Source: an uncultured Candidatus Saccharibacteria bacterium
GTDB taxonomy: Bacteria; Patescibacteriota; Minisyncoccia; Phycocordibacterales; JACNGX01
NCBI GenBank assembly: GCA_964621395.1
Contig: CAZULS010000001.1
Location: forward strand, 311,106 to 360,312
Reading direction: 5' to 3'
Length of the DNA stretch: 49,207 bases
Under the pieces are notes generated by a model that had not been told where the DNA came from, made no database searches, and saw only the letters and a list, made by a program, of their open reading frames with translations. Every line of letters begins with the position of its first letter. Position 1 is the stretch's first letter. Position numbers and translations under genes: made by a program. Positions 3,999 through 46,687 of this stretch are shown piece by piece.

Positions 3999-4195
3999 TA
4001 GAACCAGTCTCACTGAAAACATTGAAAAATAAGGGAATCATATTCAAGAGCTGCGCTTGGCAGTTCTCGCACCCAAACAGCGGCTGCACCTTGTCGCTCA
4101 ACCACACCGCACGAGAGTGCGGCATGGTTTCCGCGACGTCGGTTCGCTCGCTGTTTGGGTGCGAGAACAAGCCATTTTCAGTGAGACTGGTTCTA
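3999..4195 (-). mobile_element. 197-bp MITE-like structured element, copy 1
   Basis: TIR GAACCAGTCTCACTGAAAA with TA on both sides; nested internal stems; near-identical to 11785 and 28695. Confidence 0.9.
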
Positions 4196-4445: not shown

Positions 4446-4505
4446 CAAAGAAGCGCCTCGTATGCAAGGCGCGCTAGCGCGCCTTGCATACGAGGCGCTT
4501 CTTTG
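4446..4505. repeat. Perfect 60-bp palindrome with no loop, upstream of secG
   Basis: caaagaagcgcctcgtatgcaaggcgcgct|agcgcgccttgcatacgaggcgcttctttg. Confidence 0.95.
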
Positions 4506-5383: not shown

Positions 5384-5704
5384 ATGTCTGAAACAGAAAA
5401 AAACACCACAACAACAATTCAGCCGCTGGGGAATCGCGTCCTTGTGGAAGTGCAGGACGACTCCGCGCAAGTAACCGATGCGGGCATTATTATTCCTGAC
5501 ACGGTTGACCGTGAGAAGCCGCAGCAAGGGAAGGTGATTGCAGTGGGCGAAGGGCGAGTGACCGATGCCGGAGAGACAATTCCGATGCGGGTGAAAGAGG
5601 GCGATGTCATTCTCTTTTCCAAGTATGGTCCTGATGAAGTGACCGTTGATGATACAGAATATTATATTATCGGGGAGGAGAGTATACTTGCAATAATCAA
5701 ATAA
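5384..5704 (+). CDS. groES: Co-chaperonin GroES
   Basis: IQPLGNRVLV...GIIIPDT...EKPQQGKVIAVGEG...VKEGDVILFSKYG...ESILAII; start at ATG 5384. Confidence 0.97.
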   Translation: MSETEKNTTTTIQPLGNRVLVEVQDDSAQVTDAGIIIPDTVDREKPQQGKVIAVGEGRVTDAGETIPMRVKEGDVILFSKYGPDEVTVDDTEYYIIGEESILAIIK

Positions 5705-5706
5705 GT

Positions 5707-5837
5707 ACTCCGAATGTACGAATATATACAAAAGTACAAATGATACGAAAATCTACGAATATTCCCTCTGTGCCCGAACCGACATTTGTATGTATTTGTA
5801 CCATTTGTAGATTTGTAGTGATTTGTATATTCGGAGT
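5707..5837. repeat. Inverted arrays of TACGAA/TACAAA units between groES and groEL
   Basis: actccgaatgtacgaat...tacgaat facing atttgta...attcggagt; related arrays at 2086-2125, 10208-10313, 40683-40737. Confidence 0.8.
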
Positions 5838-7624: not shown

Positions 7625-7704
7625 GTATACACTTTTTTTACCACCGTCATCCCGCACTTGATGCGGGATCTTGATATTCATGAGCCACTTTTTTGAATGC
7701 AGGT

Positions 7705-10207: not shown

Positions 10208-10313
10208 TACGAAGTACGAATAAGTACGAACATACGAACACAAAGTATTGCGAGTATATTCGGTTCGGGAAATAACCCCCTCTTCGTATGTTCGTACTTA
10301 TTCGTAGTTCGTA
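10208..10313. repeat. 31-bp inverted repeat built of TACGAA units
   Basis: tacgaagtacgaataagtacgaacatacgaa ... ttcgtatgttcgtacttattcgtagttcgta. Confidence 0.85.
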
Positions 10314-11641: not shown

Positions 11642-11731
<90 letters not shown>

Positions 11732-11784: not shown

Positions 11785-11981
11785 TAGAACCAGTCTCACT
11801 GAAAACGTTGAAAAATAAGGGAAACATATTCAAGAGCTGCGCTTGGCAGTTCTCACGCCCAAACAGCGGCTGCGCCTTGTCGCTCAACCGCACCGCACGA
11901 GAGTGCGGCGCGGTCTCCGCGACATCGGCTCGCTCGCTGTTTGGGCGTGAGAACAAGCCATTTTCAGTGAGACTGGTTCTA
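11785..11981 (-). mobile_element. 197-bp MITE-like structured element, copy 2
   Basis: Same TIRs and TA flanks as 3999-4195. Confidence 0.9.
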
Positions 11982-12074
11982 ATTTTTTCTTTCCCAATTT
12001 TCTTTCGCCCGTATATCATACCTTTTTTGAATAATATGTCCATATAGCTACTCTTTCTGCTATACTAAGTGTAT

Positions 12075-17632: not shown

Positions 17633-19915
17633 ATGGTAAAAGGATCTGTAACCACGAAAAAGACTTCCGAATTGTTTACGCAGATTCGGAAGCGCGACGG
17701 GGAAATTTTTCCGTTTGATATTACTCACATTTCAAACGCCGTCGGAAAAGCAATGAAGAAAACAGGGGAAGGGGATGAATTTGAAGCATATCGTATCGCT
17801 GAAAAGGTTGTACAAGAATTGTACAAGATACACATGAAAGACAAGGGATACATTCCCGACGTGGAAGAAGTGCAAGATGTCGTGGAACGTGAGCTCATTT
17901 GGGAAGATTTTGCTGCGACAGCCAAAGCATATATTCTGTACCGTGAAAAGCGTGCCCAAGAGCGACGTAAGAAAGGAGCGGTCCCGGAGCATGTGAAAAA
18001 GCTGACAAAAGAATCAAGTGCGTACTTCCGTAATCAGCTTGCCGAGTTTGTCTTCTACCGCACATATGCACGCTGGATTGAAGAAGAGGGGCGCCGTGAG
18101 ACATGGATTGAAACCGTTGATCGCTACATGGCGTTTATGAAAAAGAATCTCGGAAGCAAGCTCTCCGCGAAGGATTTTAAGCGAGTGCGCGAAGCAATAC
18201 TCAAGCAGGAAGCAATGCCCTCCATGCGACTTTTGCAATTTGCAGGCACTCCCGCCGAGCGCACGAATGTGTGTGCATACAACTGCTCGTATATTACGCC
18301 AACACGTGCGGAAGATTTCGGTGAAGCGATGTATGTCCTTATGTGCGGTTCGGGCTTGGGTTTTTCTGTGGAGAGTAAGTATGTGCACCAGCTGCCACAG
18401 ATCAAGGAACAAAACGGGAAGAAGACAAAGACATTTGTTATCCCCGATACGAAGGAAGGATGGGCCGACGCACTCACACACGGTATCAAAACGTGGTATT
18501 CCGGAAAAGATGTGGAGTTTGATTATTCCGAGCTCCGTCCTGCAGGTGCCAGGCTGAAGACGATGGGCGGACGTTCATCAGGACCGGAGCCCTTGCGCAA
18601 TGTTCTTGCCTTTACTCGGGAAAAGATTTTGAAAAAACAAGGGCGCCGACTTTCCAATATCGATGTGCATGACATTCTCTGTAAGATTGGCGAGGTAGTG
18701 GTTGCCGGCGGTGTACGCAGAAGCGCTCTCATTTCACTCTCCGATCTCGACGATGCTGACATGCGCGATGCAAAGCATGGGCAATTTTACTACACCGAAC
18801 CGCAGCGCGTCATGGCAAACAACTCCGCCGTGTATACGGAAAAGCCTTCCAATGAAGATTTCATGGACGAATGGGTGGCGCTCATGAAAAGCGGATCCGG
18901 AGAGCGTGGTATCTTCAACCGCGATGCTCTGAAGACGTCTTTACCGGAGCGCCGTCTGACATTCTTGGAAGGAAAAGTGAATGACTTGGGAAGCAATCCG
19001 TGTGGAGAAATTGTACTCCAGCCGCACCAATTTTGTAATCTCTCCGAGGTGGTGGCGCGTGCCGAAGACACTGAAGAGACGTTGCTCGAAAAAGCGCGCG
19101 TTGCGACGATTCTTGGGACCTATCAGGCAACACTAACAAATTTCGGATATCTATCAAAACAATGGCAAAAGAATTGTTCAGCGGAAAGTTTGGTCGGAGT
19201 GTCAATCACCGGCCAGTGGGACAGCAGCGTTGTGCGGAAAGAAGAAGTTCTCAAAAAACTCAAGAAAGAGGTACTTAAAACAAACCGCACTTATGCCAAG
19301 AAATTCGCGATCAATCCGGCAACATGTGCCACGACGGTAAAACCTTCGGGAACCGTCTCCCAACTGGTGGATTCCGCTTCAGGTATGCATCCACGCCATG
19401 CGCAATATTATATCCGCCGTGTACGCATTGCTGCAAGCGATCCACTTTTCTCAATGATGAAAAATCAGGGTATTCCGTGCAAGCCGGAAGTGGGGCAATC
19501 AATAAACGACGCCAACACGTTTGTCCTCGAATTTCCAATCAAATCACCAAAAGGGTCGGTGTATAAGAACGACCTCTCTGCTATTGAGCAGCTTGAGCAT
19601 TGGAAGAAACTCAAGCTCAATTACACCGAGCATAATCCGTCGGTGACCATTTCCGTCGGTGAAGATGAATGGATCGCCGTTGCCAACTGGGTGTATGCCA
19701 ATTGGATAATCGTCGGCGGACTGGCATTTCTGCCGCGTGACAATCACGTCTACCAGCTGGCGCCGTATGAAACGATTGATAAAAAACGATATGATGAGCT
19801 TGTCAAGGACCTCGGTACGATAGATTTTTCTGAAATTGTTCTCTATGAAAAACATGATGCGACAGAGGTAAAAAAAGAGCTCGCATGTGCCGGAGGAACG
19901 TGTGAGATTGTGTAG
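17633..19915 (+). CDS. nrdJ: Class II (B12-dependent, RTPR-like) ribonucleotide reductase with N-terminal ATP cone
   Basis: IRKRDG ATP cone, GGVRRSALI, NPCGEI...FCNL, TVKPSGT, C-terminal ELACAGGTCE; no nrdB nearby. Confidence 0.92.
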   Translation: MVKGSVTTKKTSELFTQIRKRDGEIFPFDITHISNAVGKAMKKTGEGDEFEAYRIAEKVVQELYKIHMKDKGYIPDVEEVQDVVERELIWEDFAATAKAYILYREKRAQERRKKGAVPEHVKKLTKESSAYFRNQLAEFVFYRTYARWIEEEGRRETWIETVDRYMAFMKKNLGSKLSAKDFKRVREAILKQEAMPSMRLLQFAGTPAERTNVCAYNCSYITPTRAEDFGEAMYVLMCGSGLGFSVESKYVHQLPQIKEQNGKKTKTFVIPDTKEGWADALTHGIKTWYSGKDVEFDYSELRPAGARLKTMGGRSSGPEPLRNVLAFTREKILKKQGRRLSNIDVHDILCKIGEVVVAGGVRRSALISLSDLDDADMRDAKHGQFYYTEPQRVMANNSAVYTEKPSNEDFMDEWVALMKSGSGERGIFNRDALKTSLPERRLTFLEGKVNDLGSNPCGEIVLQPHQFCNLSEVVARAEDTEETLLEKARVATILGTYQATLTNFGYLSKQWQKNCSAESLVGVSITGQWDSSVVRKEEVLKKLKKEVLKTNRTYAKKFAINPATCATTVKPSGTVSQLVDSASGMHPRHAQYYIRRVRIAASDPLFSMMKNQGIPCKPEVGQSINDANTFVLEFPIKSPKGSVYKNDLSAIEQLEHWKKLKLNYTEHNPSVTISVGEDEWIAVANWVYANWIIVGGLAFLPRDNHVYQLAPYETIDKKRYDELVKDLGTIDFSEIVLYEKHDATEVKKELACAGGTCEIV

Positions 19916-20241: not shown

Positions 20242-20434
20242 TAGAACCAGTCTCAGAAAATGGCTTGTTCTCGTACCCACACTGCGAGCGAACCGACGTC
20301 GCGGAGACCACAACGTACTACTCGTACGTTATGGTTGAGCGACAAGGTGCAGCCGCAGTGTGGGTGCGAGAACTGCCAAGCGCAGCTCTTGAATTTTATT
20401 TCCTATTTTTCCGTTTTCAGTGAGATTGGTTCTA
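20242..20434 (+). mobile_element. MITE-like structured element, copy 3 (opposite orientation, diverged)
   Basis: tagaaccagtctca...tgagattggttcta; internal stems show compensatory changes. Confidence 0.88.
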
Positions 20435-20471
20435 TCATTAGTATTATCTCATTTATTTGTATTTTCATACT

Positions 20472-22805
20472 ATGCTATCTCGTATTTTTGCCAATGCACC
20501 GCTCGTTCTTCTGGTGCTGGGGGCGATTGTTCTCACGCCGCTTTTCCTCACTCCGGGCCTCGGTATGTCATTTTCAAAGCTATCTCTTCTCGCAGCTACC
20601 GTATTTCTTGCGCTCATCGTGTATGTAGCGTTTAGTTTGCAGAACGGATCAATTGCCATTCCCAAGACTCGACTTTGGATCGGTGTTGGTGCGTTGTTAC
20701 TCGCCACACTCATTTCTGCTCTGTTTTCGTCTGTTCCGGTTGTCTCGTTTCTCGGAGCAGGGGGTGAGGTAGGAACGGTGTTTGCGCTCCTTATCTTTGT
20801 TGCACTTTTTGCTATTGCCGCCCTGACCTTCCGGTCGCGTGAACACGCACTCTATCTCTATCTTGGATTGGGGGGTGTAGGGTTTGTCGTGGCACTTCAT
20901 TATCTTCTCAATCTTATGTTGCTCCACATGGGAAGTGCTGCACTCTCATTTGGCATCTTCACCAATACGACCATGAACGTCATTGGCAAGTGGAATGAAT
21001 TCGGCATTTTTTACGGGCTCATTACTATCCTTTCGCTTCTCGCACTTCTCCTTGGCCCAAAAACGCGCCTGCTCCGTATCGTGTCCTCCGTTTTTCTTGT
21101 CGTGGGCTTGGTGATGGTTGCGATTGTGAACTTCTCTTTCGTATGGTGGATTGTTGGTATCTTCTCTCTTCTTCTCTTTGTGTACATGATTTCATTCGGA
21201 CGCGCTCTTTCAGCGAAGACAGAGGGTGGTGGAACATATCAAGTGCCGTTTATTCCACTTGTGGCGCTGCTTGTCTCAGTTGTGTTTCTTTTGCCGGGAA
21301 ATCTCGGCGGAGTACTTTCCGACACGCTTGCAATATCTGATTCCGAAGTACGTCCTTCAATAGAAGGAACGGCCCGTATTACAGCGCTTTCATGGCAGGA
21401 CGGATGGAAAGACGCAATTATCGGTATTGGACCAAATCGTTTTTCCTCCGCTTGGGTAACGCACAAGCCCGGAGGTGTGAATCAAACAGATGCATGGAAT
21501 ACTGATTTCAATGCAGGTATCGGAACCATTCCCTCTATGGCGGTCACTCTCGGTATTGTTGGTATTATTGCGTGGCTGTTCTTCCTAGTCCTGTTTGTCA
21601 TTGAAGGAGTAAAAGGTATTGTCCGTGTGAGCTCACGGGAAGCCTCACGCCTGGGTATCATTATGTCATTCCTCGCGGCACTCTATTTGTGGATTGTGGC
21701 TCTTATGTACACACCAAGCGCAATGCTCTTCGCATTTGCCTTCCTTTTCTCAGGTGTGTGTGTCGGGCTTCTCGCACGTGAAGAAGTTGTTCTCATGAAG
21801 CGATTCTCTTTTATTGAGGATCCCCGTGTCGGATTTGTTTCCGTGTTGGTTGGCGTTGTTATATTGATTGGAGGAGTTGCTGCCTTGTATGGTGTGTCCT
21901 CGCGATATGTCTCAGGTGTGATGTTTAAGAACGGTGTTGCGGCATTTCAGCGCGGCGACGTCGATGGTGCAATTACCAACATGGTATCGGCAGTGCGTGT
22001 GTATGAACACGATTCGTATTACCGGGCATTGACTCAAGGATATGTGGCGCGTCTTGGTACGATTTCAGTCGATGATGTTGGAGAAGAAACTGCTCTCGCG
22101 CAATTCCGTGAGATATTGGGACTTGCTATTACATCTGCTGAAGCTGCCATTGCCTATGACAACACAAATCACGCCAATGAATTTACGCTTGCGTCTGTAT
22201 ACACTGAAGCTGCTGCCTACGGAGTAGAAGGGGCTCGAGAGCAAGCAATCGCTGCATACGACAAAGCCGCAGCTCTTAATCCGTCTAATCCGGAAATTCC
22301 GTATATGAAAGCGCGATTGGCTGTGCAGGGTGGGGACATCGAGACAGCACGCGCTCTTATTGCTGAGGCTGTTGGACTAAAGAATAATTACACCGCTGCC
22401 ATTTTCCTTCTTGCCCAGATTGAGGAATTAGAAGGGAATATGGACGAGGCAATCTATTTGGCGGAAGCTGCTTCCTCGCTTGCACCGCTTGATGCCGGGC
22501 TCCACTTCCAGCTCGGACTTCTCAAGTACAAAGAAGAAGATTATGCCGGAGCAAGAACAGCACTTATCCGAGCGGTGACCGTACTCCCGACATACAACAA
22601 TGCATTGTACTTCCTCGGACTCTCCTACGATATGCTCGATGAGAGAGAAAATGCTATTGCCGTATTCACCGAACTTGCTCGTCGATTACCCGAGAATACT
22701 GATGTCAGAACGGTGCTTGATCGTTTGAATCAAGGAACATCAGCGATTCCCGAAACAGTAGAAGAGGCACCTGAAGATAGTGAAGAGCCGCCGATTGAAG
22801 AATAA
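20472..22805 (+). CDS. Polytopic membrane protein (O-antigen-ligase-like) with C-terminal TPRs
   Basis: More than 12 TM segments, loop IGIGPNRF, TPR-like helices; adjacent to murJ. Confidence 0.8.
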   Translation: MLSRIFANAPLVLLVLGAIVLTPLFLTPGLGMSFSKLSLLAATVFLALIVYVAFSLQNGSIAIPKTRLWIGVGALLLATLISALFSSVPVVSFLGAGGEVGTVFALLIFVALFAIAALTFRSREHALYLYLGLGGVGFVVALHYLLNLMLLHMGSAALSFGIFTNTTMNVIGKWNEFGIFYGLITILSLLALLLGPKTRLLRIVSSVFLVVGLVMVAIVNFSFVWWIVGIFSLLLFVYMISFGRALSAKTEGGGTYQVPFIPLVALLVSVVFLLPGNLGGVLSDTLAISDSEVRPSIEGTARITALSWQDGWKDAIIGIGPNRFSSAWVTHKPGGVNQTDAWNTDFNAGIGTIPSMAVTLGIVGIIAWLFFLVLFVIEGVKGIVRVSSREASRLGIIMSFLAALYLWIVALMYTPSAMLFAFAFLFSGVCVGLLAREEVVLMKRFSFIEDPRVGFVSVLVGVVILIGGVAALYGVSSRYVSGVMFKNGVAAFQRGDVDGAITNMVSAVRVYEHDSYYRALTQGYVARLGTISVDDVGEETALAQFREILGLAITSAEAAIAYDNTNHANEFTLASVYTEAAAYGVEGAREQAIAAYDKAAALNPSNPEIPYMKARLAVQGGDIETARALIAEAVGLKNNYTAAIFLLAQIEELEGNMDEAIYLAEAASSLAPLDAGLHFQLGLLKYKEEDYAGARTALIRAVTVLPTYNNALYFLGLSYDMLDERENAIAVFTELARRLPENTDVRTVLDRLNQGTSAIPETVEEAPEDSEEPPIEE

Positions 22806-27764: not shown

Positions 27765-27840
27765 GTCATCCCGCACTTGATGCGGGATCTCGAGAGAGTT
27801 TTCTCATAATGTTTAGATCCCGCATCAAGTGCGGGATGAC
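27765..27840. repeat. Inverted pair of identical GTCATCCC REPs
   Basis: gtcatcccgcacttgatgcgggatc ... gatcccgcatcaagtgcgggatgac. Confidence 0.9.
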
Positions 27841-27902
27841 AGCAAATAGATATTACTGCTATACTAATCTCCTACCTTACTAACGTACTAACCTACTATC
27901 TC

Positions 27903-28444: not shown

Positions 28445-28515
28445 GCGGAATTAGTTAAGTGGTATAACATCAGCTTCCCAAGCTGAGATCGCGAGTTCGA
28501 TTCTCGCATTCCGCA
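28445..28515 (+). tRNA. tRNA-Gly(CCC)
   Basis: GCGGAAT acceptor, tcagc-ttCCCaa-gctga, GTTCGATTC; CCA not encoded. Confidence 0.95.
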
Positions 28516-28694
28516 CAGCCAAAGCGAACCGCCCTGAAGGGGCGGATTTCGCTTTGAGCTGTGCGGAATGAGCGAGCCAACTGCTTGGCTCGCGTCGAGA
28601 ATCGAATGCTCTCCAATATTGCGAGCCGCGCCTGCCTGCCGGCAGGTCCAGCGATACTTGAGAGAATACGAGCCCTTGGGCGAAGTATTATGAT

Positions 28695-28891
28695 TAGAAC
28701 CAGTCTCACTGAAAACGTTGAAAAATAAGGGAAACATATTCAAGAGCTGCGCTTGGCAGTTCTCACGCCCAAACAGCGGCTGCGCCTTGTCGCTCAACCG
28801 CACCGCACGAGAGTGCGGCGCGGTCTCCGCGACATCGGCTCGCTCGCAGTTTGGGCGCGAGAACAAGCCATTTTCAGTGAGACTGGTTCTA
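28695..28891 (-). mobile_element. 197-bp MITE-like structured element, copy 4, inserted in a tRNA-tail module
   Basis: Same TIRs; removing it with one TA restores gatTAGTAatcgtGGGAC. Confidence 0.92.
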
Positions 28892-29012
28892 GTAATCGTG
28901 GGACGATTCTCTCCTTTTTATCAGCCAAAGCGAACCGCCCTGAAGGGGCGGATTTCGCTTTGAGCTGTGCGGAATAGCAAGTGCATTTATGCACTTGCGT
29001 GCGGAATCGAAC

Positions 29013-33580: not shown

Positions 33581-33768
33581 GAGAACCTGTCTCGCAAAAA
33601 ATGACTTGTTCTTGTGCCAGATATTCGAGCGAACCGAAGTCTCGGAGACCGAAGCGTACTTTTGTACGGTGAGGCCGAGAGACAAGGTGCAGCCGAATAT
33701 GTGGTGCGAGAACTGTCAAGCGAAGCTCTCAGAGACTTTCCTTTATGTTTTTTGTGAGATAGGTTCTC
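33581..33768 (+). mobile_element. MITE-like structured element, copy 5 (most diverged)
   Basis: gagaacctgtctcgcaaaaa ... tttttgtgagataggttctc; keeps agcgaaccga and gacaaggtgcagccg. Confidence 0.8.
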
Positions 33769-33774
33769 CCCAAT

Positions 33775-33851
33775 GCCGAGGTAGCTCAGTTGGCTAGAGC
33801 ACTGGTCTGAAGAACCAGGTGTCGGCGGTTCGAGCCCGCCCCTCGGCACCA
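33775..33851 (+). tRNA. tRNA-Phe(GAA)
   Basis: GCCGAGG acceptor, ctggt-ctGAAga-accag, GGTTCGAGCCC, encoded CCA. Confidence 0.96.
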
Positions 33852-36184: not shown

Positions 36185-36335
36185 GGGAGAATACGTGCTT
36201 CTATTATACACCGCTTTATGTGTGCTTGGGGAGAAAGAGGGGACAGGAAAAAGAAAGATGAAATATGAAATACGAAATATGTAAAAAAGCGCGGCAACCG
36301 TTGGTTGCCGCGCTTTTTGTATATATCTATTTCCT

Positions 36336-36439
36336 GTCATCCCGCACTTGATCCTAAACCACAAGTGGTCGGATACGATGCGGGATCTAAAAATAATGAG
36401 ATTACTCTCTTTGGATTCCGGCTCGGGGGCCGGAATGAC
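36336..36439. repeat. Inverted GTCATYCC REP pair, first copy with a loop insertion
   Basis: gtcatcccgcacttgat[cctaaaccacaagtggtcggatac]gatgcgggatc ... gattccggctcgggggccggaatgac. Confidence 0.75.
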
Positions 36440-39458: not shown

Positions 39459-40637
39459 TCATTCCCCAAGCGAGAGATTTCCTTGGGCAATGATATGTTC
39501 CGGCTCTACGGTGTCGCCACGCAGAAGGCGGAAATAGCCTGCTAGTCCAATCATTGCAGCGTTGTCGGTCGTGGCGCTTTTATCGGGCAGATGAAACGAC
39601 ACGTCGGGCAGCTCGCTTTCAACGACTTTCACGAATGCCCCGCGGAGTGCCTCATTTGCTGAGACGCCACCACCAAGGACGATTGCTTGCGCACCGTATT
39701 CTTTCGCCGCTGCAATGGTTTTGTGTATGAGGACTTCAATCACCGCGCTTTGGAACTCACGGGCGAAGATGCGTTTCATATCTGCAGAGAGTGTTTCAAA
39801 CTTTTTGGCGGCGTAGAGCACGGATGTTTTGATACCGGAAAAAGAGAAATCATAATCGCCCGAATTGAGCATGGGGCGCGGAAATACAATATCGTCGTCG
39901 GCTCTCGGAGGAGCTTCGTCTGTAAGCTTGGAAATGGCGGGTCCACCCGGATACGGCAAATCCAAGACGCGTGCCACCTTATCAAATGCCTCACCAACAG
40001 CATCATCGCGTGTGCCCCCGATGAATGTACAGGAGAAAAGATCATGCATGAGAACGAGTTCGGTGTGTCCACCGGAGACGAGGAGTGCGAGCGCAGGGAA
40101 AGAAACAATGTGTGATCCGAGCGGAAACGTGTTTCCTTTGGAGAAGCCGGAAAGAATATGTCCTTCCATGTGATTGACGGGTACGAGCGGCAAACCCCAG
40201 AGGGTGGCAAGTGCGCGAGCGAAATTGATACCAACCCAAAGCGCCGGCTCAAGTCCGGGGCCTTCGGTGACAGCGATAGCATCAATGTCAGGACGAGCAA
40301 GCGGCACCGCCTCAAGCATAGCGGCATAAAGCTCAGGTTCACGCTCCAGAATACGCGCAATATCTTCTTGAACATCTTCCGGCGCATTCTCGAGCGTGTT
40401 TTCGGGGATCTCAAAGCCTGCATCATCAAGCGCACGCAAACACACCGGCACGAGATTTTTGGCGTGCTCTCGTTTGGCAAGCGAAGGATACACGCCGCCA
40501 TAGGGTGCGTGGATATCAATTTGCGAATGGACGATGTTGCTTCGGATGTGCATTTCCGATTCGTATATATCACCCGTACCTTCCACGATTGCCACAGCTG
40601 TTTCGTCACAACTTGTTTCAATAGCAAGAATAATCAT
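39459..40637 (-). CDS. tsaD: tRNA N6-adenosine threonylcarbamoyltransferase TsaD
   Basis: LAIETSCDET, VNHMEGH, LVSGGHT, DDAVGEAFDK, DNAAMI. Confidence 0.98.
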   Translation of the reverse strand: MIILAIETSCDETAVAIVEGTGDIYESEMHIRSNIVHSQIDIHAPYGGVYPSLAKREHAKNLVPVCLRALDDAGFEIPENTLENAPEDVQEDIARILEREPELYAAMLEAVPLARPDIDAIAVTEGPGLEPALWVGINFARALATLWGLPLVPVNHMEGHILSGFSKGNTFPLGSHIVSFPALALLVSGGHTELVLMHDLFSCTFIGGTRDDAVGEAFDKVARVLDLPYPGGPAISKLTDEAPPRADDDIVFPRPMLNSGDYDFSFSGIKTSVLYAAKKFETLSADMKRIFAREFQSAVIEVLIHKTIAAAKEYGAQAIVLGGGVSANEALRGAFVKVVESELPDVSFHLPDKSATTDNAAMIGLAGYFRLLRGDTVEPEHIIAQGNLSLGE

Positions 40638-40948
40638 CAGGTCAGTATAGCAGTATGATAGGAGGTTAGGAAGTCAGTAAGAACTCCGAATATACGAATA
40701 CATACAAATCTACAAATGATACGAATATGTACGAAACGTGCCTCACACCGCAAGCGGTCGGGCGCAAGACAGGAATCTTCAGTATATTGTCTCTAGAGGT
40801 TACGCGAAAACCGAGGTTGAGCTTTGGTATTCATACCAAAGCTCAACCTTGGTTTTCCGGATTGCATCTCATGTATTTGAGAATGACAGGAATAAATTTG
40901 ATATAATAGAGATAATCGTTTAATAGTGTATCGTTCATCGTTTTTTCT

Positions 40949-45499: not shown

Positions 45500-46621
45500 C
45501 TAGAGCAGTATTTTCCGCTCCGGATGTGCGAAATAGTCTTGCGCGCCGATACTCCAGAGTTGGGTGTCGTTGCCGTCGGGCTTGGCCGTGCCGTTTTCGT
45601 CGATGAGAAAGAGTTCGGGCGTGGCATCCGTTATGTGCGGAACAATACGCTCGCTTATTTCTTTCACATGGGGGAGATTGTGTTTGCGCGCCGCCATGTG
45701 GATCATAGCTTGCTCGTATGTCCACACAGTACGGGCATGGTATTTGTCGTGCATGTCTTTTTCCGTTTCGGCATCAATAGTGCGGTAGCCAACGGCTGTT
45801 TCAAGGGCTTGGGAAAAGAGGGCGATGCGCTCGGCGATGTCGTTGGGGACGTCTTCCGGCTTAAGATAGGCGAGGCCGTGGAGGAGTCCGGAGGAGATAC
45901 CGTCGATAGGACCGCGTGTGTCACGGGCAATGCGATACAAACCACGGTCACTCTGCCAGAGCTGAATAAGCTCGCTGAGCATGACCTCGGTCGTATGCTC
46001 GTAGGTATGCTTTTCAAGGAGCGTATCAGCGGCGCGAAGCGCTCGGAGGTTTTGAATATGAGCGAATGTGTACACAATCGGATATACGGGAATACCGCCC
46101 GTTCGACGTGCCACTTCAGAATCTTTCCAATAGGTCACCTTAAGTGCGTATTCATCGGCATCGGAAAATGACGGATCCACACTAAACCAGCCGTCACGAA
46201 TGTGATTCAAGATATACAACGATGCGCGTTCGATGCGTTCTTTTTCTTGCTCGGCAAGCGCGCCATCGCCACTTACTTTCTTATAAATATCATGCCCAAT
46301 GAGATACAGCGCTGTAGTGTCGCAGGCATTGAATTCGGTGGAGCGTCCGCGATAAATAACCGGCGGATACTGATGGAAAATTTTCCCCGGCTCTTCACCG
46401 GTAAACGGATCTTTCCTTTCTCCCTGGCGCGCACCGGAAAAAAGAAGCTGATCATGGAGAAGCGAGACATTACTCGTGAGGATGCCGGTGATGATGCCAT
46501 CGCGCGTGAAATTCTGCGGGAAGTCATGAGCAAACACACATCCTTCCCGTTTTTCTTTATTGATACCGGCTTTGTAAAGCGTGTAGCCGGCGAGGATCAT
46601 GCGAAGGTCTTGGGGAATCAT
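45500..46621 (-). CDS. Glycogen-debranching / amylo-alpha-1,6-glucosidase-like glycosidase
   Basis: FTRDG, GEEPGKIFH, DTTALYL, YWKDS, YH...VW, PELF, QLWS. Confidence 0.8.
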   Translation of the reverse strand: MIPQDLRMILAGYTLYKAGINKEKREGCVFAHDFPQNFTRDGIITGILTSNVSLLHDQLLFSGARQGERKDPFTGEEPGKIFHQYPPVIYRGRSTEFNACDTTALYLIGHDIYKKVSGDGALAEQEKERIERASLYILNHIRDGWFSVDPSFSDADEYALKVTYWKDSEVARRTGGIPVYPIVYTFAHIQNLRALRAADTLLEKHTYEHTTEVMLSELIQLWQSDRGLYRIARDTRGPIDGISSGLLHGLAYLKPEDVPNDIAERIALFSQALETAVGYRTIDAETEKDMHDKYHARTVWTYEQAMIHMAARKHNLPHVKEISERIVPHITDATPELFLIDENGTAKPDGNDTQLWSIGAQDYFAHPERKILL

Positions 46622-46687
46622 ATGTTAGGAGGTTAGTAAATTAGGAAATTAAGCATTAAAAAAGACACATATAGTATAGCATGTCTC

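Follow-up and report, generated by a model that had tools for sequence, protein, structure and literature searches.

Five related repeats in a 49,207-nucleotide stretch of DNA from an uncultured Candidatus Saccharibacteria bacterium (the whole stretch is referred to as the window) are, in all probability, copies of an IS5-type MITE (miniature inverted-repeat transposable element). We find that the interior of this element forms a hairpin whose covariation is real and far beyond chance, and it is likely that this interior is selected as the fold of a single strand. The repeats begin at window positions 3999, 11785, 20242, 28695 and 33581; an earlier note on this DNA had claimed five copies there, and every one of them could be confirmed at its place. 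The window corresponds to G000:C1:311106-360312 in the source genome (G000; 744 kb in six contigs, 47% G+C, ∼96.7% complete).

The layout of the element is seen in copy 1 (window positions 3999-4195, minus strand, the strand given for each window copy being the one with the better fold). The copy measures 197 nt with a flanking TA on each side and scores 218.4 bits with R1, a covariance model of the whole element. On the folding strand its 5′ terminal inverted repeat (4175-4195, minus) consists of TA plus GAACCAGTCTCACTGAAAA, and its 3′ terminal inverted repeat lies at 3999-4019 (minus). These repeats enclose an interior hairpin of 117 nt (4058-4174, minus) and a 3′ segment (4020-4057, minus) of ∼38 variable nucleotides, which forms a small hairpin rich in A and T and is missing in some relatives from other classes. 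The interior hairpin runs from a long lower stem through a GCGA/GCAGCC loop, a helix of 3 bp, another of 5 bp and a GGA/GA loop to an apical stem-loop.

A profile built from the five window copies with nhmmer returned 49 separate loci in G000, 38 of which are full-length. We aligned these 38 copies with MAFFT without fitting them to any structure (alignment A2), and RNAalifold laid out on this alignment a 21-bp helix formed by both ends, an interior hairpin held at 116–119 nt in 38 of 38 copies, and a variable 3′ segment of ∼40 nt. In this layout 96.1% of 2437 cells are paired, compared with 81.6% in shuffled alignments, and 51 of the 66 pairs have changed on both sides (26.9 in the shuffles). 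None of 500 shuffles equaled the observed value on any of five measures. The shuffle control ignores relatedness among the copies; a second control, in which the partner column is slid by 1–3 positions, does not, and it is equally clear, with pairing falling to 32–42%. The terminal inverted repeats contribute 21 pairs to the fold. Over the 37 distinct copies, 97.2% of their cells are paired, and 17 of these pairs have changed on both sides. Copy 1 by itself reaches a folding-strand energy of −122.4 as RNA (−112.1 for the other strand) and of −74.6 as DNA (−72.7 for the other strand), with z scores below −12 in either case.

The compensatory stem variants that had been listed in the earlier note are all present in the five-copy alignment. 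They comprise ttctcgcaccc.../...gggtgcgagaa versus ttctcacgccc.../...gggcgtgagaa, the stem cccacactgcg/cgcagtgtggg, gtcgc/gcgac versus gtctc/gagac, and the apical pairs gcac/gtgc versus gtac/gtac. The internal loops had been described as nearly fixed, which holds for the letters of GCGA/GCAGCC and GGA/GA, but part of what was taken for loop is a covarying 3-bp helix that occurs as ACC/GGT, GCC/GGC, GAC/GTC and GTC/GAC. The conserved unpaired letters are GA opposite GCA (inside GCGA/GCAGCC) and GGA opposite GA; a GAY opposite AA is less conserved. From their letters, both the GCGA/GCAGCC and the GGA/GA loop can be read as putative tandem G-A pairs plus one bulged base.

The fold belongs to one strand. 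Among the paired cells of the 38 G000 copies, G-T combinations outnumber A-C combinations by 155 to 24 (the remainder are 2246 Watson-Crick pairs, 78 other mismatches and 5 gaps). Counted per pair, G-T is seen in some copy at 41 of 66 pairs and A-C at 16 of 66, with 19 versus 10 singletons. The preference for G-U on the minus strand of copies 1, 2 and 4 and the plus strand of copies 3 and 5, first noticed in the window, is thus a property of the family. The alifold energy is −98.7 for the favoured strand and −63.4 for the opposite one, and with RNA parameters the favoured strand is the more stable in 38 of 38 copies (mean gain 15.6 kcal/mol, or 16.9%). At three pairs (columns 36/128, 68/98 and 74/92) G-U is the commonest state, accompanied by G-C and A-U variants; a G-U intermediate between G-C and A-U is the usual route by which RNA helices drift. 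Twenty-nine copies from other genomes show 68 G-T versus 36 A-C cells, and the same strand folds better in 27 of the 29; the cross-genome alignments (A3 and A4), however, were guided by the structure in the model, which tilts them in its favour. With a bias this strong in G000, and one seen elsewhere too, gene conversion free of strand bias does not account for the covariation. Covariation, strand bias and loop conservation together support the suggestion that the interior is under selection as an RNA or single-stranded DNA (ssDNA) fold.

The hairpin behaves as a module that is found beyond the host genome. When 150 other genomes of the order were searched with R1, which was built from the 38 full-length G000 copies, 16 of them gave 1–12 matches each; these 16 belong to many families. 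Of 34 matches outside G000, 26 have an interior of 116–124 nt, the rest being truncated, deleted or expanded. In the 29 aligned copies, the letters of GCGA and GCAGCC are ∼80–90% conserved, a level similar to that of the seven letters with which the terminal repeat begins. A covariance model of the interior alone (R2) was searched in 150 further genomes sampled across the phylum and matched in seven of them, with interiors of 117–139 nt. In these genomes the kept core is surrounded by different terminal repeats (TAAGAGACTG..., TAAGACC... and TAGAGATGG...), and some of the elements lack the 3′ segment, which leaves elements of 164 nt. In other classes the core still measures 117–123 nt in spite of these unlike ends. 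The loop letters are hence retained in larger alignments from other orders and classes, and the hairpin has outlasted turnover of the terminal repeats. A scan of species genomes for the core pattern gave at least 101 stretches, 80 of which were checked; R1 confirmed eight, and 72 were chance occurrences in GC-rich genomes. The eight confirmed loci, among the matches listed, all lie in metagenome-assembled genomes labelled as Patescibacteria.

In G000 the MITE family is old and diverse. R1 finds 40 full-length copies above 160 bits and five weaker or internally deleted ones (85–196 nt), ∼45 in total. Full copies are 188–199 nt long, and the 38 that were aligned add up to 7.5 kb, or ∼1% of the genome; their pairwise identity is 0.50 at the lowest and 1.00 at the highest (median 0.65). 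Eight copies form one young cluster, to which window copies 1, 2 and 4 belong. A scan of G000 for the end motif added remnants of 44 and 68 nt that are hardly more than both ends. Five internally deleted derivatives keep both terminal repeats (C2:231223-231266, 44 nt; C1:156371-156438, 68 nt; C1:6802-6886, 85 nt; C1:277939-278045, 107 nt; C5:10362-10489, 128 nt); each occurs once and retains little or no interior hairpin. We rejected a coding role for the interior, as the sole recurrent frame, from ATG to TGA, is broken by 1-nt differences in apical-loop length among copies. Among Rfam families searched over the whole window, only six tRNAs reach the gathering threshold, and the five copies give just chance microRNA and long non-coding RNA matches at E values up to 5, far below threshold.

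The positions of the copies point to a mobile element. Within the same genus, genome G001 contains no copy and G002 contains two, versus ∼45 in G000, and four sites differ in occupancy among these genomes. G002 lacks a copy at the site of window copy 3 (its spacer there is 93 nt) and at C1:100322, and a site occupied in G002 is empty in G000. One G000 copy (G000:C2:262595-262791; L214:1196-1392) lies in frame and in sense orientation inside the dihydrouridine synthase gene dus (Pfam Dus, 181.5 bits), where the reading frame stays open and the protein gains 65 residues. The dus genes of G001 and G002 are free of the insert, and the G000 gene is longer by exactly 195 nt (193 + 2). This copy recalls the in-frame palindromic elements of Rickettsia. 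We also located a paralogous empty site, GTTGT-TA-GTTGG, the occupied counterpart of which, around the copy at C1:105017, reads GTTGT-TA[GAACC...GGTTC]TA-GTTGG; this pair of sequences points to a putative TA duplication on insertion. TA stands on both flanks in 20 of the 38 MITE copies, including all eight of the young cluster. Contigs of four DNA sequencing runs gave no clean joint across any copy, because contigs break at repeats. Four contigs of genome G101 (L083, L091, L096 and L097) likewise end inside element copies, the repeat breaking short-read assembly.

A candidate parent insertion sequence (IS) exists in a related genome. We scanned 401 genomes of the order for the MITE end motif and found it in 64, with 48 matches in G000 and at most seven in any other genome; a control with the reversed motif gave scattered single matches. 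Genome G042 harbours an element of 841 nt (G042:C49:211-1051, locus L215) that is flanked by TA and has 22-nt ends, TAGAACCAGTCTCAATGAAAAT, of which 21 letters are identical to the MITE ends; the 5′ terminal repeat of copy 1 shows this same 21 of 22 agreement. The element contains two overlapping open reading frames (ORFs). One of them matches DUF4096 (PF13340, 99.3 bits) and the other DDE_Tnp_1 (PF01609, 65.1 bits) and DDE_Tnp_1_2 (PF13586, 43.5 bits). Where they overlap, the sequence contains the run A AAA AAG, which suggests that the transposase may be made by programmed frameshifting. The transposase stop codon falls within the terminal repeat. Relatives of this transposase, 45–57% identical, are encoded on three contigs from metagenomes, two of which carry complete elements of ∼850–860 nt that are TA-flanked and end in TAGAACCTATCTCA or TAGAGGCGGTCTCA; both of these end types are found in MITE variants too. 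The complete IS copies from G042 and the metagenomes have TA on both sides in three of three cases. Judged by its sequence, the G042 element is a small IS5-family insertion sequence, which may group near IS427, IS1031 or ISL2 on the ISfinder definitions (size, a 2–4 bp TA duplication, GA or GAG ends). The MITE-like nature claimed for the window repeats is made firmer by this insertion sequence, with its almost identical ends, in a related genome and in metagenomes. R2 has no match in the IS loci L218–L221, the G042 element included, which identifies the hairpin as a passenger and not as the remnant of a transposase gene. Because 28 nt agree with one end of the G042 element, we considered whether the folding strand is antisense to the transposase, and dropped this since both ends of the metagenome IS L249 bear those extra letters.

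These findings lead us to the following explanation, which we hold on balance and as a whole to be the probable one: an IS5-mobilised MITE with a selected passenger fold. A small transposase of the IS5 family (DUF4096 plus DDE) would most likely move the MITE in trans, inserting it at TA and duplicating the TA, each copy amounting to a net gain of ∼195 nt. The 21-nt terminal inverted repeats of the MITE enclose a 117-nt passenger hairpin that does not derive from the insertion sequence. This hairpin is maintained as the fold of one strand: stems drift while staying paired, no strand but this one tolerates wobbles, and the letters and positions of two small internal loops, both rich in purines, stay the same. 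The fold presumably serves the element's own spread or survival in those lineages that are still producing copies. That it is read as RNA and not as DNA we consider slightly the better bet. The folding strand might then be present in read-through or element-borne transcripts, possibly bound by protein, which is a guess. Our best guess of RNA draws on the G-U majority at three pairs, the larger strand advantage with RNA parameters, and the precedent of bcr1, a mobile repeat that is compared below.

The direction of the copies relative to host genes bears on the level at which the fold would be selected. With genes taken from crude longest-ORF calls, copies between same-direction genes point the same way in 13 cases and the opposite way in nine; copies downstream of a gene are sense in 18 and antisense in 13 cases, and those upstream in 26 and 22. 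This orientation relative to genes is not significant. Neither a promoter-like nor a terminator-like site was found inside copy 1. Since orientation is independent of the neighbours and copy 1 lacks such sites, a role through fixed-direction co-transcription with host genes is unlikely, and the fold is probably selected in spreading lineages and not as a host control site. A preference for supplying stop codons was rejected as well: a neighbour's stop lies on the terminal TAG in one of 40 copies, and two more genes end inside a copy. We then judged each copy against its three nearest relatives and counted its private changes. Paired columns carry 74 changes in 130 columns and unpaired columns 78 in 76, i.e. 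stems have about half the density. Of the private single changes in pairs, 17 lead to G-U, ten to A-C and ten to other mismatches; another 21 changed positions each form one side of a pair that was compensated. The mild recent bias, set against the strong overall bias, suggests that the signal arose for the most part in copy-producing lineages, though selection may act on resident copies as well.

Several observations weigh against the explanation of a transposase-mobilised element with a selected RNA fold. The copies of 44–128 nt that have lost the interior may indicate that the interior is dispensable for persistence, and perhaps for movement. Recent changes look near neutral, with G-U only mildly favoured over A-C (17 vs 10, p = 0.25). 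The absence of a transposase from the window, stated in the earlier note, extends to the whole of G000 for the IS5 family of matching ends: neither PF01609 nor the G042 IS protein has a single match there, and the young eight-copy cluster is therefore left with no visible mobiliser. In the order, the IS transposase was found in four of 151 genomes, and G042 is the one of 17 MITE carriers that has it; the contamination estimate of G042, at 7%, is the highest. The TA duplication rests on one paralogous site with just five matching letters on the left, the cross-species empty sites in G001 and G002 are too diverged at the junction for a 2-bp duplication to be read, and the flanking positions covary as pairs (A-U 33 and G-C 3 at columns 2/205), which is unexpected under pure target duplication. 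The strand preference outside G000 is taken from alignments leaning towards the model, as said above. As to RNA, sequencing runs were searched for this DNA and no RNA run carries it, and the strand advantage exists with DNA parameters too, in 37 of 38 copies (mean gain 6.5 kcal/mol, 11.9%). Folding energies by themselves cannot separate RNA from DNA. Finally, the folding strand lies on the leading-strand sequence in 24 copies versus 13 (p = 0.10, with the replication strand inferred from GC skew), a weak excess that would fit a role as ssDNA.

The most serious rival is accordingly that the fold acts as ssDNA, which we consider possible though distinctly less probable than the RNA reading. Here the hairpin would extrude when the DNA is single-stranded, for instance while it is taken up, in an intermediate of transposition or on the template of the lagging strand; it would draw the two ends together, or the mobilising enzyme would recognise it. 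In favour of the ssDNA reading, DNA hairpins tolerate tandem G-A mismatches and G-T pairs as well; against it, IS4- and IS5-kind DDE transposases work on double-stranded ends. It would agree with the near-universal strand advantage under DNA parameters, with the 24 to 13 excess on the leading-strand sequence (that is, on the lagging-strand template) and with a copy direction that is independent of host transcription. This replication bias is not significant, however, and it is confounded, since genes point along replication too; a G-T majority at three pairs is easier to obtain in RNA, where G-U nearly equals A-U; and RNA parameters give the favoured strand a larger energy gain than DNA parameters do (16.9% vs 11.9%). 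Excerpts of the work on REPINs (PMC3116915) supply a precedent for compensated ssDNA hairpins.

A second enzyme has to be considered as mobiliser. G000 encodes a single intact RAYT-like Y1 (HUH) transposase (L201:1258-2055, i.e. G000:C4:21540-22337) with HUH (HFH) and YxHxNP motifs. It scores 23.7 bits against PF01797 in a six-frame genome search (cut-off 23) and 22.3 bits as a protein, and 36.1 bits against NF047646 (cut-off 80). Relatives of this gene reach 13 per genome in the order, many with internal stops. We think it very unlikely that the Y1 enzyme moves the element in the manner of REPINs, as a single-stranded hairpin placed next to TA with no duplication. Such a mechanism would have the appeal of an intact gene in a genome where the matching DDE transposase was not found, the paralogous empty site is equally compatible with insertion 3′ of TA and no duplication, and the gene is present in 13 of the 17 MITE-bearing genomes. 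Relatives occur, however, in 87 of 151 genomes, including the MITE-free G001, and the association is slight (13/17 vs 74/134, Fisher p = 0.12). The terminal repeats are not self-complementary REP units and carry neither a GTAG nor a CGTC tag, and they match a DDE insertion sequence in 21 of 22 letters. No copy of the element flanks the Y1 gene, since the sole full copy on the contig of this gene is 15 kb away, and other hairpin repeat families in G000 could be the substrate of the Y1 enzyme.

Two further explanations dispense with a mobile fold under selection, and both are highly improbable. Intramolecular repair can homogenise long inverted repeats, and the element might be a foldback palindrome whose arms are made alike by gene conversion or templated repair, with the strand asymmetry as a mutational by-product. 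The mild bias of the private single changes (17 vs 10) is what such a process might leave behind, but it offers no reason for a one-strand G-T preference of 155 to 24, and a mutational strand bias needs a shared copy direction relative to replication or transcription, which is barely seen. Conversion would also erase the asymmetric loops, and GCGA/GCAGCC and GGA/GA persist across orders and classes within an interior of nearly constant length, both in the 38 G000 copies and in most matches elsewhere. Alternatively, the copies could be a family of host small-RNA genes, each functional in place and only seemingly mobile; strong covariation, conserved loops, pairing of 96% in copies that are ∼65% identical, and the ∼1% of a 744-kb genome that they occupy would suit this, against which stand positions that are not common to same-genus genomes, a copy 1 devoid of promoter-like and terminator-like sites, ends that match a transposon, one copy within the coding gene dus, and no Rfam match.

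The element compares with several known systems. Like IS5-derived MITEs, it is non-coding, dispersed and TA-flanked and has terminal repeats in common with an insertion sequence, here one of 841–860 nt with DUF4096 and DDE_Tnp_1; it differs in that its interior is a separate 117-nt hairpin with conserved loops and not a deletion remnant of the insertion sequence. The Tourist MITEs of PIF/Harbinger transposons are the eukaryotic counterpart of IS5-family MITEs. The Correia/NEMIS elements of Neisseria and the RUP elements of pneumococcus have TA at both ends, terminal inverted repeats of 20–26 nt and the potential to form hairpins over their whole length in transcripts, and they have been linked to IS630-type transposases. 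They occupy different hosts and have no sequence relation to our element, and the IS630-type DDE_3 domain (PF13358) was not found in G000. Neither Correia/NEMIS nor RUP is known for a conserved internal-loop core. The fold of NEMIS is mentioned in excerpts of Delihas 2011 (PMC3184786), which also describe the Chunjie MITE of Geobacter as an element of 178–235 bp with 21-bp terminal repeats and a highly stable predicted fold of approximately −98 to −130 kcal/mol. In size, 21-nt ends and stability (copy 1 reaches −122 kcal/mol) our element resembles Chunjie; the latter is AT-rich and has 9-bp direct repeats, and the excerpts report neither covariation nor conserved loops for it. The same excerpts present bcr1 of the Bacillus cereus group as a mobile repeat of ∼155–200 nt in which compensating changes keep the fold, with transcription and RNA-level structure reported (PMC3184786). 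As described there, bcr1 is unlike our element in its 5-bp direct repeats, its cruciform-like two-hairpin fold and its Firmicutes hosts, and the two have no sequence relation. REPINs are moved by RAYT tyrosine transposases (Bertels and Rainey 2011, PMC3116915), and G000 has one RAYT-like gene; the ends of our element are not REP palindromes and are common to a DDE insertion sequence, and the RAYT-like gene is not significantly associated with the element. Hairpins preserved by compensating changes have already been reported in bacterial repeats of the MITE-like kind, in bcr1 and in REPINs. Full-text searches gave no published description of our element and nothing on MITEs of Patescibacteria or the candidate phyla radiation (CPR), and excerpts of the Minerva preprint (10.64898/2026.09.22.753630) mention neither MITEs nor Patescibacteria. 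The element thus represents a family not described before, though MITEs as such are known, and its structured core is unusually conserved and strand-specific.

All five window copies sit in spacers among ORFs and tRNA genes. Copy 2 (11785-11981, minus; 218.5 bits) has tRNA-Ser (11642-11731, minus) on one side and an ORF at 12069 on the other. Copy 3 (20242-20434, plus) lies in the spacer that separates the ORFs at 17633-19915 and 20457-22805. Copy 4 (28695-28891, minus) is located downstream of tRNA-Gly (28445-28516), and a 72-nt structured module flanks it on both sides (28498-28569 and 28904-28975), the first instance overlapping the 3′ end of the tRNA-Gly gene. Copy 5 (33581-33768, plus; 177.8 bits) is the most diverged of the five and stops just before tRNA-Phe (33775-33851). 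About 250 nt from copy 1, the window contains a perfect 60-nt palindrome (4446-4505), made of two 30-nt arms that are 100% complementary and have no spacer. Other repeats in the window include AGTAnnTT-type arrays with an 8-nt period in the spacers at 1911-1986, 40636-40679 and 46619-46662 and, inverted, at 27850-27901; short hairpin repeats of the GTCATCCCGCACTTGATGCGGGAT type at 7646-7678, 27769-27853 and 36323-36434; and palindromes and repeats rich in TACGAA in the spacers at 10208-10313 and at 5702-5768 and 40678-40744.

MITEs are usually thought to need their ends only. Here, conservation of the middle equals that of the ends: the shape of the middle survives complete turnover of the stem sequences and favours one strand, and the core persists across the phylum while the terminal repeats change. 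For the annotation of CPR genomes this matters because the element makes up ∼1% of a genome, stands at many gene boundaries and is found once in frame in dus, and because such a MITE family could wrongly pass for a new family of small RNAs. Should spread require the fold, then cut-and-paste elements of the DDE type can rely on RNA or single-strand structure. A bolder version of this idea, which strikes us as unlikely, is that the 117-nt hairpin is a module that IS5-type MITEs throughout Patescibacteria must carry in order to spread, as RNA or as a single strand of DNA; the DUF4096-DDE transposase or a host protein could then bind the folded strand. If true, these would be derivatives of DDE transposons whose mobility needs a strand-specific fold and not the ends alone.

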